Sequence record: MZ375356.1
DNA length: 64,000 nt
Direction: 5' to 3' (one strand)
Origin: Escherichia phage T4
The translations under genes were made by a program, and so were the position numbers. Within the stretch, counting starts at the first letter, position 1; the number at the start of each line of letters is the position of its first letter. Below the pieces are notes generated by a model. It made no database searches. It saw only the letters and a list, made by a program, of their open reading frames with translations, and had not been told where the DNA came from. Of this stretch, positions 1 through 64,000 are shown piece by piece.

Positions 1-1227
1 GTTCAGCCGATGAACAGCCCGACTGGCCAGGTATTCGCACTGCGCGCAGTATATGGTAAAGACCCAGTGGCTGCCGGTGCTAAAGAAGCATTCCACCCAA
101 TGTATGGTCCAGATGCAATGTTCTCTGGTCAGGGTGCTGCTAAGAAATTCCCAGCTCTGGCTGCTAGCACACAAACCACAGTAGGTGATATCTATACTCA
201 CTTCTTCCAGGAAACTGGTACTGTATATCTGCAAGCTTCTGTTCAAGTAACAATCGATGCTGGTGCGACTGATGCTGCTAAATTAGATGCTGAAATTAAG
301 AAACAAATGGAAGCTGGTGCACTGGTAGAAATCGCTGAAGGTATGGCTACTTCTATCGCTGAACTCCAGGAAGGTTTCAATGGTTCTACCGATAACCCAT
401 GGAATGAAATGGGCTTCCGTATCGATAAGCAAGTTATCGAAGCTAAATCTCGTCAGCTGAAAGCTGCTTACTCTATTGAATTAGCACAAGACCTCCGCGC
501 TGTTCACGGTATGGATGCTGATGCTGAACTGTCTGGTATTCTGGCTACAGAAATTATGCTGGAAATCAACCGTGAAGTTGTTGATTGGATTAACTACTCA
601 GCTCAGGTTGGTAAATCTGGTATGACCCTGACTCCGGGTTCTAAAGCTGGTGTATTTGACTTCCAGGACCCAATTGATATTCGTGGTGCTCGCTGGGCGG
701 GTGAATCCTTTAAAGCTCTGTTGTTCCAGATTGACAAAGAAGCAGTTGAAATTGCTCGTCAGACCGGTCGTGGTGAAGGTAACTTCATTATCGCTTCCCG
801 TAACGTAGTTAACGTTCTGGCTTCAGTTGATACCGGCATTTCTTATGCTGCACAGGGTCTGGCTACCGGCTTTAACACTGATACTACCAAGTCAGTATTT
901 GCTGGTGTTCTGGGTGGTAAATACCGCGTATATATCGACCAGTATGCTAAACAGGATTATTTCACTGTAGGTTATAAAGGTCCGAACGAAATGGATGCTG
1001 GTATTTACTATGCTCCATATGTAGCTCTGACTCCGCTGCGTGGTTCCGATCCGAAGAACTTCCAACCGGTAATGGGATTCAAAACTCGTTACGGTATCGG
1101 TATCAACCCATTTGCAGAATCCGCTGCTCAGGCTCCGGCTTCTCGCATCCAGAGCGGTATGCCTTCTATTCTGAATAGCCTTGGTAAAAACGCTTACTTT
1201 AGACGTGTATATGTTAAAGGTATCTAA
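1..1227 (+). CDS. 23: major capsid protein gp23, C-terminal 405 codons (5' end lies outside window)
   Basis: ORF in frame from window position 1; followed by hairpin terminator and segD/24 as in T4. Confidence 0.9.
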   Translation, partial: VQPMNSPTGQVFALRAVYGKDPVAAGAKEAFHPMYGPDAMFSGQGAAKKFPALAASTQTTVGDIYTHFFQETGTVYLQASVQVTIDAGATDAAKLDAEIKKQMEAGALVEIAEGMATSIAELQEGFNGSTDNPWNEMGFRIDKQVIEAKSRQLKAAYSIELAQDLRAVHGMDADAELSGILATEIMLEINREVVDWINYSAQVGKSGMTLTPGSKAGVFDFQDPIDIRGARWAGESFKALLFQIDKEAVEIARQTGRGEGNFIIASRNVVNVLASVDTGISYAAQGLATGFNTDTTKSVFAGVLGGKYRVYIDQYAKQDYFTVGYKGPNEMDAGIYYAPYVALTPLRGSDPKNFQPVMGFKTRYGIGINPFAESAAQAPASRIQSGMPSILNSLGKNAYFRRVYVKGI

Positions 1228-1253
1228 TCTCTAACGATAGAAACACAATTTTA

Positions 1254-1279
1254 GGGAACCTTCGGGTTCCCTTTTTCTA
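1254..1279 (+). terminator. rho-independent terminator after gene 23
   Basis: GGGAACC-TTCG-GGTTCCC hairpin followed by T-run. Confidence 0.75.
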
Positions 1280-1949
1280 TTTTATACGATAGCAATCAGG
1301 CATATCATCCGCATTTATCCAATTGCGAATAGTTTTAGGACTAACTTTAAAATGCTCCGCTGCGTAATCAGGATTATCAAATTTAACGCCCTTTATACAT
1401 ATTGGAATAAATTTTTTAATACCACCAAGTTTTTCAGAAATAGCTTTACGATGTGAAATCGATATAGGTTTGTTTTTTCGTGGATGAACATGTGTTTTAT
1501 AATATTCATTGCGCCCTTTAACTCGCTTCGCAATAGTTTCATCAGATTGCTTAACGCCTGTTTTTGCCTTTGATATTTTTCGTTTAGCTTCCACAGTCAT
1601 TCCTTCTTTTGTTCGTATTGATAACATATTACGATATGAAGGATCTTGCAAATGAACTAACTGGATTTCCTCTGCCACCAATAGCAGCATTATAGGTATC
1701 AGTTCTCATAACGAATTCCTCATTAACTAGTAAAGCTTCCATTTTATACATCTCCTCAGATGAGGAGAAAGAATAAAGAATTTCTTTTTTAAAGTTATGA
1801 ATACCATATTTTTTGATGGATTTTTTGATGTTTACGCCAGAACCCATATAACCATCGTTTTCGTCAAGAGTAGCATGAGCTCCGATGTAAATTTTTCCAT
1901 TGATGATATTAGTAATTTGATATATTAAATATTTCATTTTAAACATCAC
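1277..1949 (-). pseudogene. segD: GIY-YIG homing endonuclease SegD-like, interrupted by frameshift
   Basis: N-terminal ORF 1629..1949 has GIY-YIG motif ([17 protein letters not shown]); C-terminal ORF 1277..1690 has NUMOD3-like basic repeats; the two overlap in different frames; span 673 nt is not a multiple of 3. Confidence 0.7.
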
Positions 1950-1999
1950 TCCGTTTGTATATGATTATAATCATATTACTTTGGTCTTGTAAATAACTT

Positions 2000-2007
2000 T
2001 ATAAATA
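2000..2007 (+). promoter_or_regulatory. T4 late promoter TATAAATA upstream of gene 24
   Basis: exact TATAAATA 27 nt upstream of ATG at 2035. Confidence 0.7.
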
Positions 2008-2034
2008 GTATTATATTTCAACAAGGAAAATACA

Positions 2035-3318
2035 ATGGCTAAAATCAACGAACTTCTGCGCGAATCAACCACAACGAATAGCAACTCAATCGGTCGCCCA
2101 AATCTCGTTGCTTTGACTCGCGCTACCACTAAATTAATATATTCTGACATTGTAGCAACGCAAAGAACTAATCAACCTGTTGCTGCTTTTTATGGTATCA
2201 AATACCTTAACCCAGACAACGAATTTACATTTAAAACTGGTGCTACTTACGCTGGCGAAGCTGGATATGTAGACCGAGAACAAATCACAGAATTAACAGA
2301 AGAGTCTAAATTAACTCTCAATAAAGGCGATTTATTCAAATATAATAATATCGTTTATAAAGTATTAGAAGATACTCCATTTGCTACTATCGAAGAAAGT
2401 GATTTAGAATTAGCTCTTCAGATTGCAATCGTTCTTTTAAAGGTTCGTCTATTTTCTGACGCAGCGTCAACAAGCAAATTTGAAAGCTCTGATAGTGAAA
2501 TTGCGGATGCTAGATTCCAGATTAATAAATGGCAAACTGCAGTTAAATCTCGTAAACTTAAAACTGGCATCACAGTTGAATTAGCGCAAGATTTAGAAGC
2601 AAATGGATTCGATGCTCCTAATTTCTTGGAAGATTTGCTTGCAACTGAAATGGCAGATGAAATCAATAAAGACATTCTGCAGTCTTTGATTACAGTGTCA
2701 AAACGCTATAAAGTTACAGGAATTACTGATAGTGGATTCATCGATTTGAGTTATGCATCTGCTCCTGAAGCTGGTCGTTCATTATACCGAATGGTATGTG
2801 AAATGGTTTCGCATATCCAAAAAGAATCAACTTATACAGCAACGTTCTGTGTTGCTTCAGCTCGTGCCGCTGCGATTCTTGCTGCATCAGGCTGGTTAAA
2901 ACATAAACCAGAAGATGACAAATATCTTTCACAAAATGCCTACGGGTTCTTAGCTAATGGTTTACCGCTTTATTGCGATACTAACAGCCCATTAGATTAT
3001 GTAATCGTTGGCGTAGTAGAAAATATCGGTGAAAAAGAAATTGTTGGATCAATTTTCTATGCTCCGTATACAGAAGGTCTCGACTTAGATGACCCTGAAC
3101 ATGTAGGTGCATTTAAAGTTGTTGTTGATCCAGAAAGCTTACAACCATCTATCGGTTTATTAGTTAGATATGCTTTATCAGCAAATCCTTATACTGTAGC
3201 AAAAGATGAAAAAGAAGCAAGAATAATTGACGGTGGAGACATGGATAAAATGGCAGGTCGTTCAGATTTGTCTGTTTTATTAGGTGTTAAGCTACCAAAA
3301 ATTATCATTGATGAATAA
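2035..3318 (+). CDS. 24: head vertex protein gp24
   Basis: 427-aa ORF, size and position match T4 gp24; capsid-fold paralog of gp23. Confidence 0.9.
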   Translation: MAKINELLRESTTTNSNSIGRPNLVALTRATTKLIYSDIVATQRTNQPVAAFYGIKYLNPDNEFTFKTGATYAGEAGYVDREQITELTEESKLTLNKGDLFKYNNIVYKVLEDTPFATIEESDLELALQIAIVLLKVRLFSDAASTSKFESSDSEIADARFQINKWQTAVKSRKLKTGITVELAQDLEANGFDAPNFLEDLLATEMADEINKDILQSLITVSKRYKVTGITDSGFIDLSYASAPEAGRSLYRMVCEMVSHIQKESTYTATFCVASARAAAILAASGWLKHKPEDDKYLSQNAYGFLANGLPLYCDTNSPLDYVIVGVVENIGEKEIVGSIFYAPYTEGLDLDDPEHVGAFKVVVDPESLQPSIGLLVRYALSANPYTVAKDEKEARIIDGGDMDKMAGRSDLSVLLGVKLPKIIIDE

Positions 3319-4927: not shown

Positions 4928-5481
4928 ATGATAATGATACTTCATTAGAAGTAACGCTTAGTGCATCATAATCTGTCGCGGTTACTTGGGCTACGCATTT
5001 AATTCTTTTTACTCCACTTGTAGTTGGAGTATAGCTAAATGTAGAGTTAGTTTCTCCACCAACTTGTGAATCATCTACATACCACTGATACGTAGCAGAT
5101 GCTCCATCAGGTTGAGAAGCTAAGGCAGCAGTAAATTGAACTGGGGTTCCAATCACTCCAGCCGCAGGACTAGCAGGAGTTACGGCTAAGGTAGTCGTCT
5201 GTGTCTTATTTTTAACTGTGATAGTTGTTGTCGCTTCAGCCGTTTCCGGGCCTCCTTCAGAAAGTGTATTTGTTGCAACTACTTTAATAGTCTTTTGACC
5301 GGCAGGTCCTTTTAGCATAACTAAAAGTTGCTTCAGCTCCATCTTGTGGAACATTATCTACGCTCCAAGCATATGTAATAGTTCCGCCTCCAGTTTGACC
5401 ACTGGGTGTAGCAGTAAACTGCTTAGTTTCATCAATAACCCCTGTAGGTGTTTTAGGAGTTATATCAACTGTAAAAGTCAT
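4926..5481 (-). pseudogene. hoc: Hoc outer capsid protein, frameshifted after ~55 codons and lacking C-terminal half
   Basis: ORF 5284..5481 begins MTFTVDITPKTPTGVIDETKQFTATPSGQ then changes frame; ORF 4926..5354 continues with Ig-like domain sequence and stops 83 nt before 24.3; total ~190 codons versus 376 aa remembered for T4 Hoc. Confidence 0.8.
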
Positions 5482-6219: not shown

Positions 6220-6748
6220 ATGTACCACTTTGTATATGAAACAACAAATCTAATAAATGGTAAAAAGTATATAGGAAAGCACTCTACTGATGACTTGAAT
6301 GATGGTTACCTTGGTTCCGGTAAGGCAATTCAGCAGGCTATAAAGAAATATGGTGAAAACAATTTCTCTAGAACAATACTAAAAGAGTTTAAAACTTCCG
6401 AAGAAGCGTACATGTATGAAGAAGAAATTATAACTCCTGAACTAATAAAAAGCAAAAATTATAATATGAAACCTGGTGGAATTGGTGGAATTGGTGGAAT
6501 TGTTATGACTACAGATGTTATAGCAAAGATGAAAGAATCTTCCGCTAAAAGATTTGAAAACTCACCGGGCACGGTATTAGGTAAAACTTGTTACTAATGG
6601 AACTAAAAATATTTTTATTAAACCTGGAGAACTTGTTCCAGAAGGATTTGTAAAAGGGATGGTTCATCCTAATAGAAAGTCCAGAAAAGGATGTAAAGTC
6701 AAACCGACTACCACAGGAACTTTTTGGGTCAATAATGGCGCAAAATAA
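6220..6748 (+). pseudogene. segE: GIY-YIG homing endonuclease SegE-like, at least two frameshifts
   Basis: ORF 6220..6597 has GIY-YIG motif (MYHFVYETTNLINGKKYIG); Seg-type C-terminal motif (IFIKPGELVPEGFVKGM) continues in the next frame to 6748; a second copy of that motif is in the third frame running into uvsW. Confidence 0.7.
6475..6501 (+). repeat. 9-bp tandem repeat (GGTGGAATT)x3 inside segE
   Basis: three perfect tandem copies encoding GGIGGIGGI. Confidence 0.9.
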
Positions 6749-9505: not shown

Positions 9506-9549
9506 TTGTTATTGGTTGTTATTGGATGTTATTGGATGTTATTGGATGG
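9506..9549. repeat. tandem decamer repeat (TTGTTATTGG/ATGTTATTGG) x4 plus partial copy
   Basis: seen directly; lies in the uvsY upstream region between uvsY and gene 25. Confidence 0.9.
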
Positions 9550-14837: not shown

Positions 14838-15932
14838 ATGGCAATTGTTAAAGAAATAACTGCTGATTTAATTAAAAAGTCCGGTGAGAAAATTTCAGCC
14901 GGACAGAGTACTAAATCAGAAGTAGGAACTAAAACATACACAGCCCAGTTTCCAACTGGGCGTGCTAGTGGTAATGACATTACAGAGGACTTCCAGGTAA
15001 CAGATCTATATAAGAATGGATTATTATTTACTGCATACAATATGTCATCTAGGGATTCTGGAAGTCTTAGATCGATGAGATCTAACTACTCTTCTTCATC
15101 TTCGAGTATTTTACGTACAGCTAGAAACACTATTAGTAGTACAGTATCAAAACTATCAAATGGATTAATATCAAATAATAATTCAGGAACAATAAGTAAA
15201 TCTCCTATCGCAAACATTCTTTTACCGAGATCTAAATCTGATGTTGATACATCATCACATAGATTTAATGATGTTCAAGAAAGCCTTATCAGTAGAGGCG
15301 GAGGTACTGCTACTGGTGTGCTAAGTAATATTGCTTCAACCGCAGTATTTGGGGCACTGGAAAGTATAACACAAGGTATAATGGCTGATAATAATGAACA
15401 GATTTATACGACAGCCAGAAGTATGTATGGTGGTGCTGAAAATAGAACTAAAGTGTTTACATGGGATTTGACTCCACGTTCAACAGAAGATTTAATGGCT
15501 ATTATTAATATCTATCAATATTTTAACTATTTTTCTTATGGTGAAACGGGTAAATCTCAATATGCTGCTGAAATAAAGGGGTATTTAGATGATTGGTATC
15601 GTTCTACGTTAATTGAACCTTTATCTCCGGAAGACGCAGCTAAAAATAAAACACTATTTGAGAAAATGACATCGAGTTTAACTAACGTTCTAGTAGTTTC
15701 AAACCCGACAGTTTGGATGGTGAAAAACTTTGGCGCAACATCTAAGTTTGATGGAAAAACGGAAATATTTGGTCCATGTCAAATACAGAGCATTAGATTT
15801 GATAAAACACCTAATGGTAACTTTAACGGATTAGCTATTGCTCCAAACCTCCCTAGTACATTTACTCTCGAGATTACTATGAGAGAAATTATCACGTTAA
15901 ACCGTGCTTCTTTATATGCGGGGACTTTTTAA
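14838..15932 (+). CDS. 48: baseplate tail-tube junction protein gp48
   Basis: 364-aa ORF. Confidence 0.9.
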   Translation: MAIVKEITADLIKKSGEKISAGQSTKSEVGTKTYTAQFPTGRASGNDITEDFQVTDLYKNGLLFTAYNMSSRDSGSLRSMRSNYSSSSSSILRTARNTISSTVSKLSNGLISNNNSGTISKSPIANILLPRSKSDVDTSSHRFNDVQESLISRGGGTATGVLSNIASTAVFGALESITQGIMADNNEQIYTTARSMYGGAENRTKVFTWDLTPRSTEDLMAIINIYQYFNYFSYGETGKSQYAAEIKGYLDDWYRSTLIEPLSPEDAAKNKTLFEKMTSSLTNVLVVSNPTVWMVKNFGATSKFDGKTEIFGPCQIQSIRFDKTPNGNFNGLAIAPNLPSTFTLEITMREIITLNRASLYAGTF

Positions 15933-40944: not shown

Positions 40945-41037
40945 TTAGCAGTATTGCCGATAGTTGTATAGTACCATAAAGCTTTATGCTTGTAAACCGT
41001 TTTGTCCATAAAGCTTTATGCTTGTAAACCGTTTTGT
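40945..41037 (-). promoter_or_regulatory. early-type promoter region with perfect 32-bp tandem duplication (40974..41005 and 41006..41037)
   Basis: each copy carries GTTTAC -35 and a GCTTTA MotA-box-like motif; only the proximal copy is followed by GGTACTATACAACTATC; element family also at 57760 and 60818. Confidence 0.5.
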
Positions 41038-60566: not shown

Positions 60567-60694
60567 TTTACACCATTCCAAATTGTTTCAACCACGGATT
60601 TTAAACCATTTTGATGAATATCCATTCCTACTACCGCTGAAACCTGTGCAACCCACCACGCACAAGCAATAAGTACAGAATTCAAAATTTTCAT
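60563..60694 (-). CDS. small hydrophobic peptide (43 aa; ndd.x cluster)
   Basis: ORF MKILNSVLIACAWWVAQVSAVVGMD... Confidence 0.3.
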   Translation of the reverse strand: MKILNSVLIACAWWVAQVSAVVGMDIHQNGLKSVVETIWNGVK

Positions 60695-60880: not shown

Positions 60881-61438
60881 TTAAATGGAAAGATACCATC
60901 CGTTGTAGTTGCTTTTTCTTACAACTTTACGAAGGTCTTCTCTGTCACCGATGAACTTCGGAGTGTACTGGATGACACCTGGATGAATTTCTTTAGTGTT
61001 GAATATAATTATACAGTCAGCGACTTGATGATTTAGAATGGGCCCTAGATTTATTCCAGAACCATATGGATACTCTCCGCTGCATCCCGTTGTTACCGAA
61101 ATCCAACGTGAGTCAGTTTGATGTGTCTTAACTTCTACACGAAGCCCGCAGTATTTTGGATGAGCCAATACATCCCATGCATATGTGTACGGATCATCGA
61201 CATCCTCTTGGCCTTTATTGACATATCCACTCAACCAATCTGCCACAAAAAACTCTGCGTACACAGCGATACGGCATCTTTCGATAACTTCTGCCTTATC
61301 TTGATTTGGGTTTTGTTTTAAAGAGTATCTTGCAGTATCAGCAATTTTGACCTTCATTTCACAGGTCAAGTCACTGTTCGATAGGGTAAATGTCGGAATC
61401 TGAAATAGTCTCTGTAACCCAGGATTCGTTTTCTGCAT
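60881..61438 (-). CDS. denB: endonuclease IV
   Basis: 185-aa ORF, size and position. Confidence 0.8.
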   Translation of the reverse strand: MQKTNPGLQRLFQIPTFTLSNSDLTCEMKVKIADTARYSLKQNPNQDKAEVIERCRIAVYAEFFVADWLSGYVNKGQEDVDDPYTYAWDVLAHPKYCGLRVEVKTHQTDSRWISVTTGCSGEYPYGSGINLGPILNHQVADCIIIFNTKEIHPGVIQYTPKFIGDREDLRKVVRKSNYNGWYLSI

Positions 61439-61492
61439 TTAAACTTTCCTTTATGTCGGAATCACCGATATTCATATAAATCATAATTTCTC

Positions 61493-61517
61493 TTAAAACA
61501 AAAGGGCCGAAGCCCTT
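61493..61517 (-). terminator. hairpin terminator after denB.1
   Basis: AAGGGC-TTCG-GCCCTT on minus strand followed by TTTTGTTTT. Confidence 0.6.
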
Positions 61518-61521
61518 TATT

Positions 61522-61716
61522 TTACTTGAATTGTGCAATTCTTTTCTCTAGACATTCAGCATAAGATTTCATTGAGATGAACTGCGAAAGTAGCAGTTCT
61601 TGCTCAACTGCGCTAACTGTTAGAAACTTTGCGCTTTCTAAAAATTTGCTCAGTGCATTAATTTTGAGCATTAATTGATCGTATTCTTCTTTTACTCGTG
61701 CTTGATAACCTAACAT
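61522..61716 (-). CDS. hypothetical protein (positional denB.1)
   Basis: 64-aa ORF. Confidence 0.4.
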   Translation of the reverse strand: MLGYQARVKEEYDQLMLKINALSKFLESAKFLTVSAVEQELLLSQFISMKSYAECLEKRIAQFK

Positions 61717-61744
61717 AATTTTCCTTAGTTAAGGGCCGAAGCCC

Positions 61745-62526
61745 TTATTTAAATTGTTCAGTAACGTCTTCAACTACTTCATATTGGCAGGTACGCATTT
61801 TAGCATCGTTGTAATCAATCGGAATTGATACTACATCGCGAGGATGAACTTTAACTTTTACAACTCGGCTGGTTGAACTACCAAAGTGACGAATATAAGA
61901 TTTAGAACACACATGCAAACCACGAGAACAAGTTTGTGTATCATCGTCATTCACACGAGTACGTGGCATTTTAACTACTACCCGGACTGTTATCAAAGGT
62001 GTTTGAGTGACAGTCAAAGTAATTGCTGCGAACTACTTTCCAAGCATAGAAAACCATCTTCTGTAATTTCAATATCGTTTGCTACCAAGAAATCAAAGAG
62101 TCGAGATACCGCTTTTTGGCTTGGGTTTTCCAACAGATTTTCCAAGAACGGAAAATAAAATTCAAAGTTTTCGCCTTTTTCCATCGAGTCAAGAATACGA
62201 TCAACCAAACCAGACCGCAATTCAATATTTTGATAGAACAAGCTTCCACCTTCAATTCGAACATCGCCGGAAATATATTTTTCAACAGCACGACGAACAT
62301 TAATTTTTTGTGCCGCTTCTTCCAACTTATCCGCTACAAGCAGATTAAGAATTTCCTGGAAGTTTGAATGAGTATTAGGAGTTGCGTTATAAGTTACGCC
62401 ATCAACAGTAATTGAAATGAATTTTTTAGATGCATTCCAAATAATGTCAGATTTAGCAACTGGAGCAATAACTGCATCGCTATTAACTTTAACTGTAATA
62501 TCACCGCTAATAGTAACTTTAGGACG
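61745..62526 (-). pseudogene. rIIB: rIIB remnant: N-terminal ~51 codons absent, internal frameshift near 62017
   Basis: [30 protein letters not shown]... through ...[10 protein letters not shown] (in ORF 62014..62850) then frame change to ...CSRGLHVCSKSYIRHFGSS...EQFK (ORF 61745..62017); remembered N-terminus MYNIKCLTKNEQAEIV not present. Confidence 0.6.
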
Positions 62527-63990
62527 AGGAGCTTTACTTTTAACTACCTTTGGAATATAACTTTTTACTAAAGCTTCAATTTCTGACAAATAATGAATGT
62601 TAACTTCATCACTTTCAAACATCGCCATAATATCAGGAAGCAAATCAATCTGCGATTCTACTTCTGGATTAATAAACAGAAGACGTTCGTTATGATGAAT
62701 ATTCAAAGTGTTATTAAATTCACTATCATCTAACGCACGTGCTAATCCACGGACAATATTAACACGATTTTTAATATTATCAATAACGATATTAATTTTT
62801 GTTGTATTAATACCAAACAGACGAACTTGATGCAACGGCTGAAGTTTCATGACTTTGCTTAATGCGCTTCAGTCGAGGGTCAAGATTTACTTCATACACA
62901 ACTCCCGCGTTGCATAACTTACTGTCAGGTTCAAACATGCTCTGCATCTTTTTATATGACAGATTTTTAGTCGTGAATTTGACTGAATTACTAATCATAT
63001 AATCTCGAGCAGAATACCCCATCTTCAATTCACGATGTGTGACGAGGAGATGTAGATTCTTTAAATCGTTTTACATCTTCATTAAATGCTTTCTCACTGA
63101 GTTCTTTAACTCGTTCAATAATATTTTTACGAGTGCGATCATCCAGTGAAAGAGCCTCGCGAGATGGAGCAATATCAAGTGAACCCATTGGAAACTTAAT
63201 GTAATTCACTTCATTGCGAATGCTTAGCCAGTTACGGTCTCTAATAACACCATCGATAGGATAAACAATACCACCGTAGATAGCATATAATCCACCACGA
63301 TCAGGCCAGTATCTTTCTGGATTTACACCGTAATAGTCATCAAAATCCGGAAAATAATCAATTTCGCGGTCAAGACCATTAATGATAGCCAAATCTTTGA
63401 ACGGTCGCATGATATAAGAAACTTCATAAGCAAAGTTTCTAAAGTCTTTTTCTTCAACTGGAACTACGATTTCAATACCAGTTTTATCATCTGGACCCAT
63501 TTCTTTTACGAATGTAGGTTTAATCTGTGGACCATCACCATCCATGTAAGCTATAACCACGAATTTCACCTTTATGATACGAAGTAATACTAAACGTATC
63601 AGTATAACTAAACGGAGATTTAGAACCTAAACCAAATCCGCCAATAAAGTCATTAGATTCAGCTTTAGATGAACTGAAGTATGAATTATACAACCCAGGA
63701 GAATTATCATCACCTTGAATATCAAAATCACTCATACCCGGACCAAAATCTCGACAAACAAATCGTGGGTCTAAACGTCCAGGAACTTGTATGATAAATT
63801 TTTCAGGATTTCCATTAAGTGCATGAGCATCAATCATGTTAGTAATCAATTCACGGACTACTGCGCGAATCTTGTTTGTATACAAATCAGATGACAGAAT
63901 TTTAAATACTTTAGGAGATGCTGTGATGCTAAATGCTTTTGATTTAGAACCATTACCAAGAATTGTTTCTTTTTCAGTGGTGATAATCAT
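62527..63990 (-). pseudogene. rIIA: rIIA remnant: N-terminal ~490 codons in four frame segments, fused to rIIB remnant
   Basis: begins [20 protein letters not shown]; successive ORFs 63535..63990, 63030..63569, 62807..63028, 62014..62850 each change frame; too short for 725-aa rIIA. Confidence 0.6.
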
Positions 63991-64000
63991 AATTTCCTCA

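Follow-up and report, generated by a model that had tools for sequence, protein, structure and literature searches.

The rII locus examined here very probably descends from an r1589-type fusion of rIIA and rIIB, carried by a laboratory derivative of bacteriophage T4 and later broken by a series of small deletions. We analysed a single stretch of 64,000 nucleotides (record MZ375356.1), hereafter the window. In it one deletion of 869 bp has removed the boundary between the two cistrons, and six deletions of two or three nucleotides have followed in what was left. The proteins RIIA and RIIB shield T4 from the Rex exclusion that lambda lysogens exert, and play a role in lysis inhibition; they are dispensable on the lambda-free strain MG1655.

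The rII locus in the window

Judged on its sequence, the segment 61745-63990 of the window (minus strand) corresponds to the rII locus of T4. The whole window aligns to T4 positions 105284..168903, then 1..2199, and the segment itself to rIIA (12..2189) and rIIB (167965..168903) of NC_000866. When positions 61400-64000 were compared by megablast with 50,697 phage records, the matches were T4 and its relatives, with 99.4-99.5% identity to T4 records. At 99.5% identity over 2.6 kb, the pattern seen in rII is not due to chance. The best matches (99.5%) were OL964745 (T4_7t1) and OL964735 (T4_3t3), and no other match ran unbroken across the query. The T4 neighbourhood (denB, denB.1, rIIB, rIIA, rIIA.1, 60) is conserved: denB and denB.1 lie directly downstream of the rIIB part, while rIIA.1 is found, by wrap-around, at the start of these two sister records. 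The window and both sister records terminate at the identical point, 10 nt upstream of the rIIA ATG.

The region spans 2246 nt from the rIIA start at 63990 to the last stop, a TAA at 61745-61747 (minus strand), as an earlier note made from the letters had proposed and as both the ORFs and the sequence confirm. Five overlapping ORF fragments run from 63990 down to that stop (Table 1). A weak match to the Pfam family HATPase_c_3 was also seen in the N-terminal part of the rIIA segment.

Table 1. Coordinates of the rII features and of the neighbouring gene in the window
Feature	Position	Strand	Basis or remark
rIIA start codon ATG	63988..63990	-	T4 coordinate 2189
rIIA-derived segment, codons 1-492, minus 9 nt in four microdeletions	62524..63990	-	Alignment to NC_000866 and OZ035787
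Sole product that can be read from the native rIIA start codon: 146 native residues, then SLHGW and a stop; 151 aa	63535..63990	-	Translation
2-bp deletion, TG from GGTTA[TG]TAGC, after rIIA nt 437; first frameshift; private to the window	63553..63554	-	Alignment
2-bp deletion, AT from ACAC[AT]ATCG, (AT)2 repeat; second frameshift; private to the window	63036..63037	-	Alignment
In-frame loss of 3 bp, a TGA unit from TGATGA; private to the window	63027..63028	-	Alignment
2-bp deletion, TA from AAGT[TA]TCGT; third frameshift; also in OL964745 (T4_7t1)	62824..62825	-	Alignment
Junction microhomology CCTAAAG, single copy left	62517..62523	-	Alignment to wild type
rIIB-derived segment, third base of codon 55 to codon 312 and TAA	61745..62516	-	Alignment
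2-bp deletion, AC from GGTT[AC]TTCT, rIIB part; fourth frameshift; private to the window	62051..62052	-	Alignment
2-bp deletion, AA from GGGT[AA]AGTA, rIIB part; fifth frameshift; private to the window	61979..61980	-	Alignment
denB.1, intact, next gene downstream	61522..61716	-	Confirms T4 synteny

A single deletion joins rIIA to rIIB

The window, OL964735 and OL964745 were aligned to wild-type T4 (OZ035787 and NC_000866). Against OZ035787 all three have in common one gap of 869 bp across the divide between rIIA and rIIB, which in T4 reference coordinates covers 713..1 plus 168903..168748. Lost with it are rIIA codons 493-725 and their stop, the 11-nt intercistronic gap and rIIB codons 1-52: the distal 233 codons of rIIA are gone and codons 1-492 are kept. 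Much of this had been anticipated in the earlier note, which supposed a junction-spanning deletion of about 0.9 kb and an rIIB short of some 51 N-terminal residues. The deletion is indeed single, with endpoints at T4 713/168748 that leave both genes incomplete, and the figure for rIIB was essentially right, the actual loss being 52 codons.

The junction sits at window 62524/62516, around the 7-bp repeat CCTAAAG. In the wild type this motif is a direct repeat, present at rIIA codons 493-495 and again at rIIB codons 53-55; extended to 13 positions, the two wild-type copies are identical at 11. The same 7 bp mark both endpoints and one copy is retained, as is expected of a deletion between short direct repeats. 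Spontaneous deletions of this kind are classical in T4. Two apparent substitutions beside the junction are an effect of the imperfect repeat and represent no real changes. If the repeat is assigned to rIIB, the rIIB-derived segment amounts to codons 53-312; it lacks 4 nt in two microdeletions.

The join is in frame. The junction peptide reads ...VKSKAPR/PKVTISGD... (the slash marks the join) and lies inside a single ORF, 62014..62850, which bears out the view that rIIB-type sequence is read in frame with upstream rIIA. A single deletion has taken the rIIA stop, the intercistronic gap and the rIIB start, so that the suspected resemblance to r1589 holds as that of a junction-spanning, in-frame rIIA-rIIB fusion.

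The deletion r1589 is Benzer's rIIA-rIIB fusion, used in cracking the genetic code; on Benzer's map it begins in segment A5 and takes out B1. It reportedly served both Champe and Benzer in 1962 and Crick et al. in 1961. In r1589 as in the window, a single deletion over the cistron divide takes the distal third of rIIA and the dispensable beginning of rIIB, and joins the two genes in frame as one polypeptide. The extent from A5 to B1 agrees with what is found here, where 492 of 725 A codons are kept (68%) and 52 of 312 B codons are lost (17%), the comparison being one of architecture and map segments rather than of sequence endpoints. On this footing we lean, if only slightly, towards identity of the window's fusion allele with r1589 proper. 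There is one plain difference. The fusion ORF of the window is destroyed by five frameshifts, and the useful B activity of r1589 presumably cannot be present in it.

The unbroken form of the fusion exists in a sister clone. OL964735 (T4_3t3) has an uninterrupted ORF of 2259 nt, coding for 752 amino acids that combine residues 1-492 of RIIA with residues 53-312 of RIIB, and the intact fusion protein is in GenBank as UJD20213.1. Exact look-up found this very sequence on 12 contigs (NCBI and Logan). UJD20213.1 was missed by the homologue search, and it is grouped within the rIIB cluster. When 160 nt around the junction were required to match at 100%, only OL964735 and OL964745 were recovered from the phage collection. 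An exact 40-mer across the junction had no match in IMG/VR, JGI metagenomes or GTDB genomes, and E. coli genomes and plasmids, searched with 160 bp, contained none.

Decay of the fused gene

Relative to both the wild type and OL964735, rII in the window carries five frameshifting deletions of 2 bp and one in-frame deletion of 3 bp. The earlier note had arrived at four further frameshifts; this was a miscount, caused by a 72-nt segment overlooked between the last two. Translation that begins at the native rIIA start never arrives at the rIIB part; the N-terminal fragment of rIIA listed in Table 1 is all that it can yield. The suggestion that rII function was probably lost appears sound in this light: from its reading frames alone, the allele of the window must be predicted to be null for both rII functions.

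The three clones form a series. All have the identical 869-bp junction and the same record layout. In OL964735 the 752-aa fusion is intact; in OL964745, which has 40 further differences in common with the window, the frameshift at 62824/5 among them, there is one frameshift. Counted as frameshifts in the fusion ORF, decay goes from none in T4_3t3 to one in T4_7t1 and five in the window.

Where the fusion came from

Several features of these records point to the CiPGr genome-reduction experiment, in which T4 was grown on E. coli MG1655 equipped with SpCas9, lambda-Red and a library of spacers and templates, comprising eight spacers per non-essential gene, through 300-600 serial transfers (Yuan et al., 2022; PMC9825161). 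Deletions of 100 bp were the 'cassette-100' design of that study (PMC9825161). Genome-wide, T4_3t3 departs from wild-type T4 by five deletions of ~100 bp, one 3-bp deletion and one 1-bp insertion, to which a few substitutions and the rII deletion must be added. Annotations in the sister records cite 'T4583L', and the CiPGr paper names a T4_583L mutant. The window almost certainly forms the last 64 kb of a sister record, and the ~100-bp deletions that match the cassette-100 design, along with these annotations, make it a strong inference that it comes from a T4 clone of that experiment. The window has 77 differences from the wild type, of which 40 are common to T4_7t1; set against the sister clones, it carries a private 351-bp deletion in the ndd region and a 32-bp duplication.

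Was the fusion made during the experiment, or brought into it? We think it likely that it was already present in the parental T4 stock, for several reasons. The same junction is found in the nearly unmutated T4_3t3 and in the heavily mutated lineage of T4_7t1 and the window, and these have no other indel in common. A deletion of 869 bp fits neither the 100-bp nor the whole-gene design. T4_3t3 is 1373 bp shorter than the wild type; once the 869 bp are set aside, 504 bp are lost, that is 0.30%, which equals the reduction of 0.3% given for T4_100_t3 in the CiPGr paper (PMC9825161). This match, together with the five 100-bp deletions, suggests that T4_3t3 is the clone that the paper calls T4_100_t3. 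The same paper lists seven unplanned large deletions, and rII is absent from the list (PMC9825161). Finally, a stock of the r1589 kind has been documented independently: a T4 from a culture collection was described with an rIIAB fusion, sensitive to RexAB, its position and size 'indistinguishable' from the r1589 sketch of Benzer and Champe (Maffei et al., 2021; PMC8594841). That stock, like the parent that we envisage for the window, was a T4 sold as wild type with rIIA and rIIB fused into one ORF (PMC8594841, S5 Fig); the likeness is known from its description, and its fusion ORF is intact while that of the window is broken.

Two observations run counter to a parental origin. Microhomology at the junction is also typical of the 'minihomology' deletions provoked by Cas9 (PMC8262927), and outside OL964735 and OL964745 the junction was not found in any collection searched. 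They lend themselves to another account, in which the 869-bp deletion arose de novo during CiPGr, after a Cas9 cut in a designed rII protospacer; UvsX-dependent minihomology end-joining between the CCTAAAG copies would have sealed the break, and the product would then have swept through, or recurred across, the lines. As a non-essential locus, rII was presumably targeted. The deletion does resemble the escapes studied by Wu et al. (2021; PMC8262927), which have short-repeat endpoints (3-8 nt there, 7 bp here) with one copy retained, and in which identical minihomology deletions recur independently. Moreover, the two other large deletions of the window, in hoc (578 bp) and in ndd.2a-ndd.5 (351 bp, with 10 bp of microhomology), are likewise flanked by microhomology and were unplanned. 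Yet T4_3t3, where the junction is also found, has otherwise only designed 100-bp deletions and almost no change; the 869 bp are counted neither in the paper's 0.3% reduction nor among its unplanned large deletions; a random escape would have had to reproduce the in-frame architecture of r1589 by coincidence, and an r1589-like stock is on record in any case. Both the de novo event and the end-joining route proposed for it appear improbable to us. In the deletions of Wu et al. a Cas cut fell inside the lost segment, whereas the deletion in the window most probably predates exposure to Cas9.

With a parental origin, the history of the locus may be put as follows. A deletion of 869 bp between 7-bp direct repeats created the in-frame, 752-aa rIIA(1-492)::rIIB(53-312) fusion that T4_3t3 displays. 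This allele would in all likelihood have been that of a parental 'wild-type' stock, as an r1589-type fusion circulating in collections and not one made by the experiment. In the lineage of the window, the ORF was then broken by the five 2-bp deletions and the 3-bp deletion that the alignment reveals, with the 151-aa fragment as its remnant. On lambda-free MG1655, where there is no Rex exclusion to resist, rII is dispensable and its decay would have gone unopposed; its microdeletions would simply be part of genome-wide, slippage-type losses of 1-3 bp, kept wherever frameshifts are tolerated.

What produced the small deletions

Across the 64 kb, the window has 56 microdeletions of 1-3 bp relative to the wild type (38 of 2 bp, 12 of 3 bp and 6 of 1 bp), alongside about 10 real substitutions, all of them missense and most in the tail-fibre genes 34-37. 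All 38 deletions of 2 bp sit in non-essential genes or in intergenic DNA. The essential coding sequence, 25 kb in all, has none of them (P = 1.3e-8); the only small deletions there are in-frame ones of 3 bp, in genes 29, 34 and 48. At 2.7 per kb, the density in rII compares with 1.3 per kb for all non-essential coding sequence and is surpassed in segE (6.5 per kb) and 30.2 (4.8 per kb). It is unremarkable, and the frameshifts are no specific feature of rII.

It might be asked whether these events are real. The genomes were assembled de novo from short reads by SOAPdenovo (PMC9825161), and the A/T-rich repeats in which the events fall can be error-prone; the true fusion ORF might on this reading be intact. 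That sequencing or assembly artefacts should explain them is nevertheless extremely unlikely. Errors would not spare essential genes as the 2-bp deletions do, nor would 40 events recur exactly in T4_7t1, an independently assembled sister clone. These common events must be heritable and are no assembly noise. T4_3t3, a third clone of the same project, is essentially without such events, and the CiPGr paper saw such deletions in population reads (PMC9825161). Homopolymer sequencing error was considered as well, and rejected: the events are of 2-3 bp rather than 1 bp, and they avoid essential genes.

The microdeletions carry the signature of slippage. One unit of a tandem repeat is removed in 46% of the 2-bp and 71% of the 3-bp events, against 15% and 7.5% for random positions; the remainder mostly show 1-nt microhomology, and nearly all involve A/T dinucleotides. 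Repeats were also gained in the lineage, with +9 bp in segE, +20 bp of a 10-mer at 9517 and the tandem duplication of 32 bp at 40974-41037. Tracts prone to slippage are far from saturated, 9 of the 242 dinucleotide tracts in non-essential genes being affected. Some dispensable genes gather many events (in T4_7t1 the mobB region has about 11 in 750 bp), and the dispensable alt, rnlA, rnlB and pseT, about 5 kb together, have no microdeletion. Such clustering makes uniform neutral slippage alone insufficient.

The explanation tentatively offered in the CiPGr paper is that small deletions are escapes from CRISPR (PMC9825161), which for rII would mean that each destroyed one of the roughly eight designed SpCas9 protospacers. 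Several events per targeted gene suit a design with eight spacers, and untargeted essential genes are free of 2-bp deletions. Every one of the six rII events touches the seed of one or more possible NGG protospacers, an outcome that chance alone would bring about in roughly 6% of cases. At first sight there even seemed to be Cas9 scars, three rII deletions lying 9 nt upstream of a TGG and two at the predicted cut site; a histogram of distances, and tests on all 72 events against local and motif-matched controls, revealed no enrichment and this impression was rejected. Visual inspection for Cas12a PAMs around the rII deletions gave no fit either.

The wider test pooled the window with T4_7t1, which gave 72 small deletions, and considered NGG sites at large rather than the spacers used. 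Measured in this way, any NGG target was overlapped by 50 of the 72 (expected: 55.6 from local, 52.7 from motif-matched controls), seed or PAM was affected in 39 (45.6 and 39.8), and the cut site was spanned by 11 (15.1 and 16.5); 22 events lay out of reach of any NGG target. A scan of k-mers and offsets around the 72 events brought out no other convincing positional motif; its best result, an adjacent AGC (9 against 1.5 expected), was borderline after correction. It also tells against escape that deletions of 3 bp occur in the untargeted essential genes 29, 34 and 48, and that tandem repeats expanded in the same lineage. We consider CRISPR escape a rather unlikely source of the small deletions in rII.

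Slippage may have been enhanced in this particular lineage. As a tentative reading, in which we place limited credence, the microdeletions could stem from a mutator state of replication slippage specific to this lineage rather than from Cas9 escapes, with A/T-rich di- and trinucleotide units lost, and in some cases gained, at far more than ten times the usual mutation rate of T4; we give this rate the same guarded standing. Both the window and T4_7t1 have a frameshift in frd, a gene that is intact in T4_3t3. It is possible that loss of the frd product, dihydrofolate reductase, limits dTTP and, through 'thymineless' mutagenesis, favours slippage in A/T repeats. Among replication and recombination genes, no substitutions were found in 32, 59, rnh and 30 in either the window or T4_7t1, nor, in the part of T4_7t1 outside 46001-91999, in genes 43, 44, 62, 45, 41, 61, uvsX, 46 and 47. 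The sole change in a candidate mutator gene is one in dda, in T4_7t1 (again outside 46001-91999).

Consequences for work with T4

The allele as such is already known: its junction is public in GenBank and the small deletions have been reported. What might be added concerns the latter, which lack the geometry of escape from SpCas9, and this questions the tentative explanation of the CiPGr paper. Their missing geometry is the only residue of the analysis that is mildly surprising. For the rest, the biology of T4 is little affected, as we are dealing with a classical laboratory allele in an engineered lineage.

With reference to phage engineering, the finding supports the idea that 'wild-type' stocks of T4 with an r1589-like fusion circulate and serve, unrecognised, as parents of engineered phages. 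A parental fusion would already be defective in rIIA. Stocks of the r1589 kind are Rex-sensitive and defective in lysis inhibition, and their use can bias conclusions about fitness and about which genes are 'removable'.

Small deletions and the frd frameshift

When compared with wild-type T4, the window displays 56 deletions of 1-3 bp over positions 1-64000, nearly all of which remove A/T dinucleotides or units of tandem repeats. None of these 56 shifts the reading frame of an essential gene. Small deletions of this kind have been tentatively explained as CRISPR-escape mutations, arising during the serial transfers of the CiPGr Cas9 genome-reduction experiment (Yuan et al. 2022, PMC9825161). 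The distribution of the window's 1-3 bp deletions runs contrary to this explanation: SpCas9 NGG targets are not enriched for them. Another origin is possible. The gene for dihydrofolate reductase, frd, carries a 2-bp frameshift, common to the window and T4_7t1 (OL964745), a sister mutant clone with the same rIIA-rIIB fusion junction; a further sister, T4_3t3 (OL964735), is devoid both of this frameshift and of the 1-3 bp deletion class. Across the three genomes, presence of the frameshift correlates with that of the A/T microdeletions, and the frd lesion, via dTTP limitation, is a candidate for their cause.

Features of the window that differ from wild-type T4
Feature	Window position	T4 position	Location	Sister clones
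578-bp deletion	4932-4939 (junction)	~110196-110773	within hoc	also in OL964745
3-bp deletion plus one added 9-bp unit TGGTGGAAT (3 copies vs 2)	6463-6500		segE	
10-mer TGTTATTGGA, +2 copies	9517-9536		between uvsY and gene 25, near oriF	
2-bp frameshift	39540	145400	frd	
Perfect 32-bp tandem duplication	40974-41037	146852-146883	intergenic, frd.3/gene 32	private to window
Missense P1177L (gp34); D232V (gp35); P189L (gp36); N937S, I951V, Y953H (gp37)	48482-53542		genes 34, 35, 36, 37	
351-bp deletion	60628-60637 (junction)		ndd.2a into ndd.5	private to window

Larger deletions and repeat gains

The ndd deletion, flanked by 10-bp direct repeats CTACTACCGC, fits neither the whole-gene nor the 100-bp design of the CiPGr experiment. 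Adjoining the hoc deletion are a change of the hoc stop codon (TAA>TTA) and a 1-bp deletion. BLAST output breaks the segE change up into an untidy cluster of substitutions and indels. At this site the 3-bp deletion of T4_7t1 is not the one in the window, and at the uvsY/gene 25 site T4_7t1 has three added copies of the 10-mer.

As for T4_3t3, its whole genome has five deletions, each about 100 bp long, that look designed (in cd.3 and arn.2, for example) and a missense change, I69N, in holin t. The prefix 'T73t3' in its locus tags is a typo, the record being T4. In the REMoDE preprint (10.1101/2022.09.30.510419) this mutant's record served as 'the genome for T4 phage'.

Substitutions

Real substitutions with respect to wild type are all missense, and they are concentrated in the long-tail-fibre genes; position 14980, in gene 48, is also changed. 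Such clustering suggests that host recognition may have changed adaptively in the course of serial transfers.
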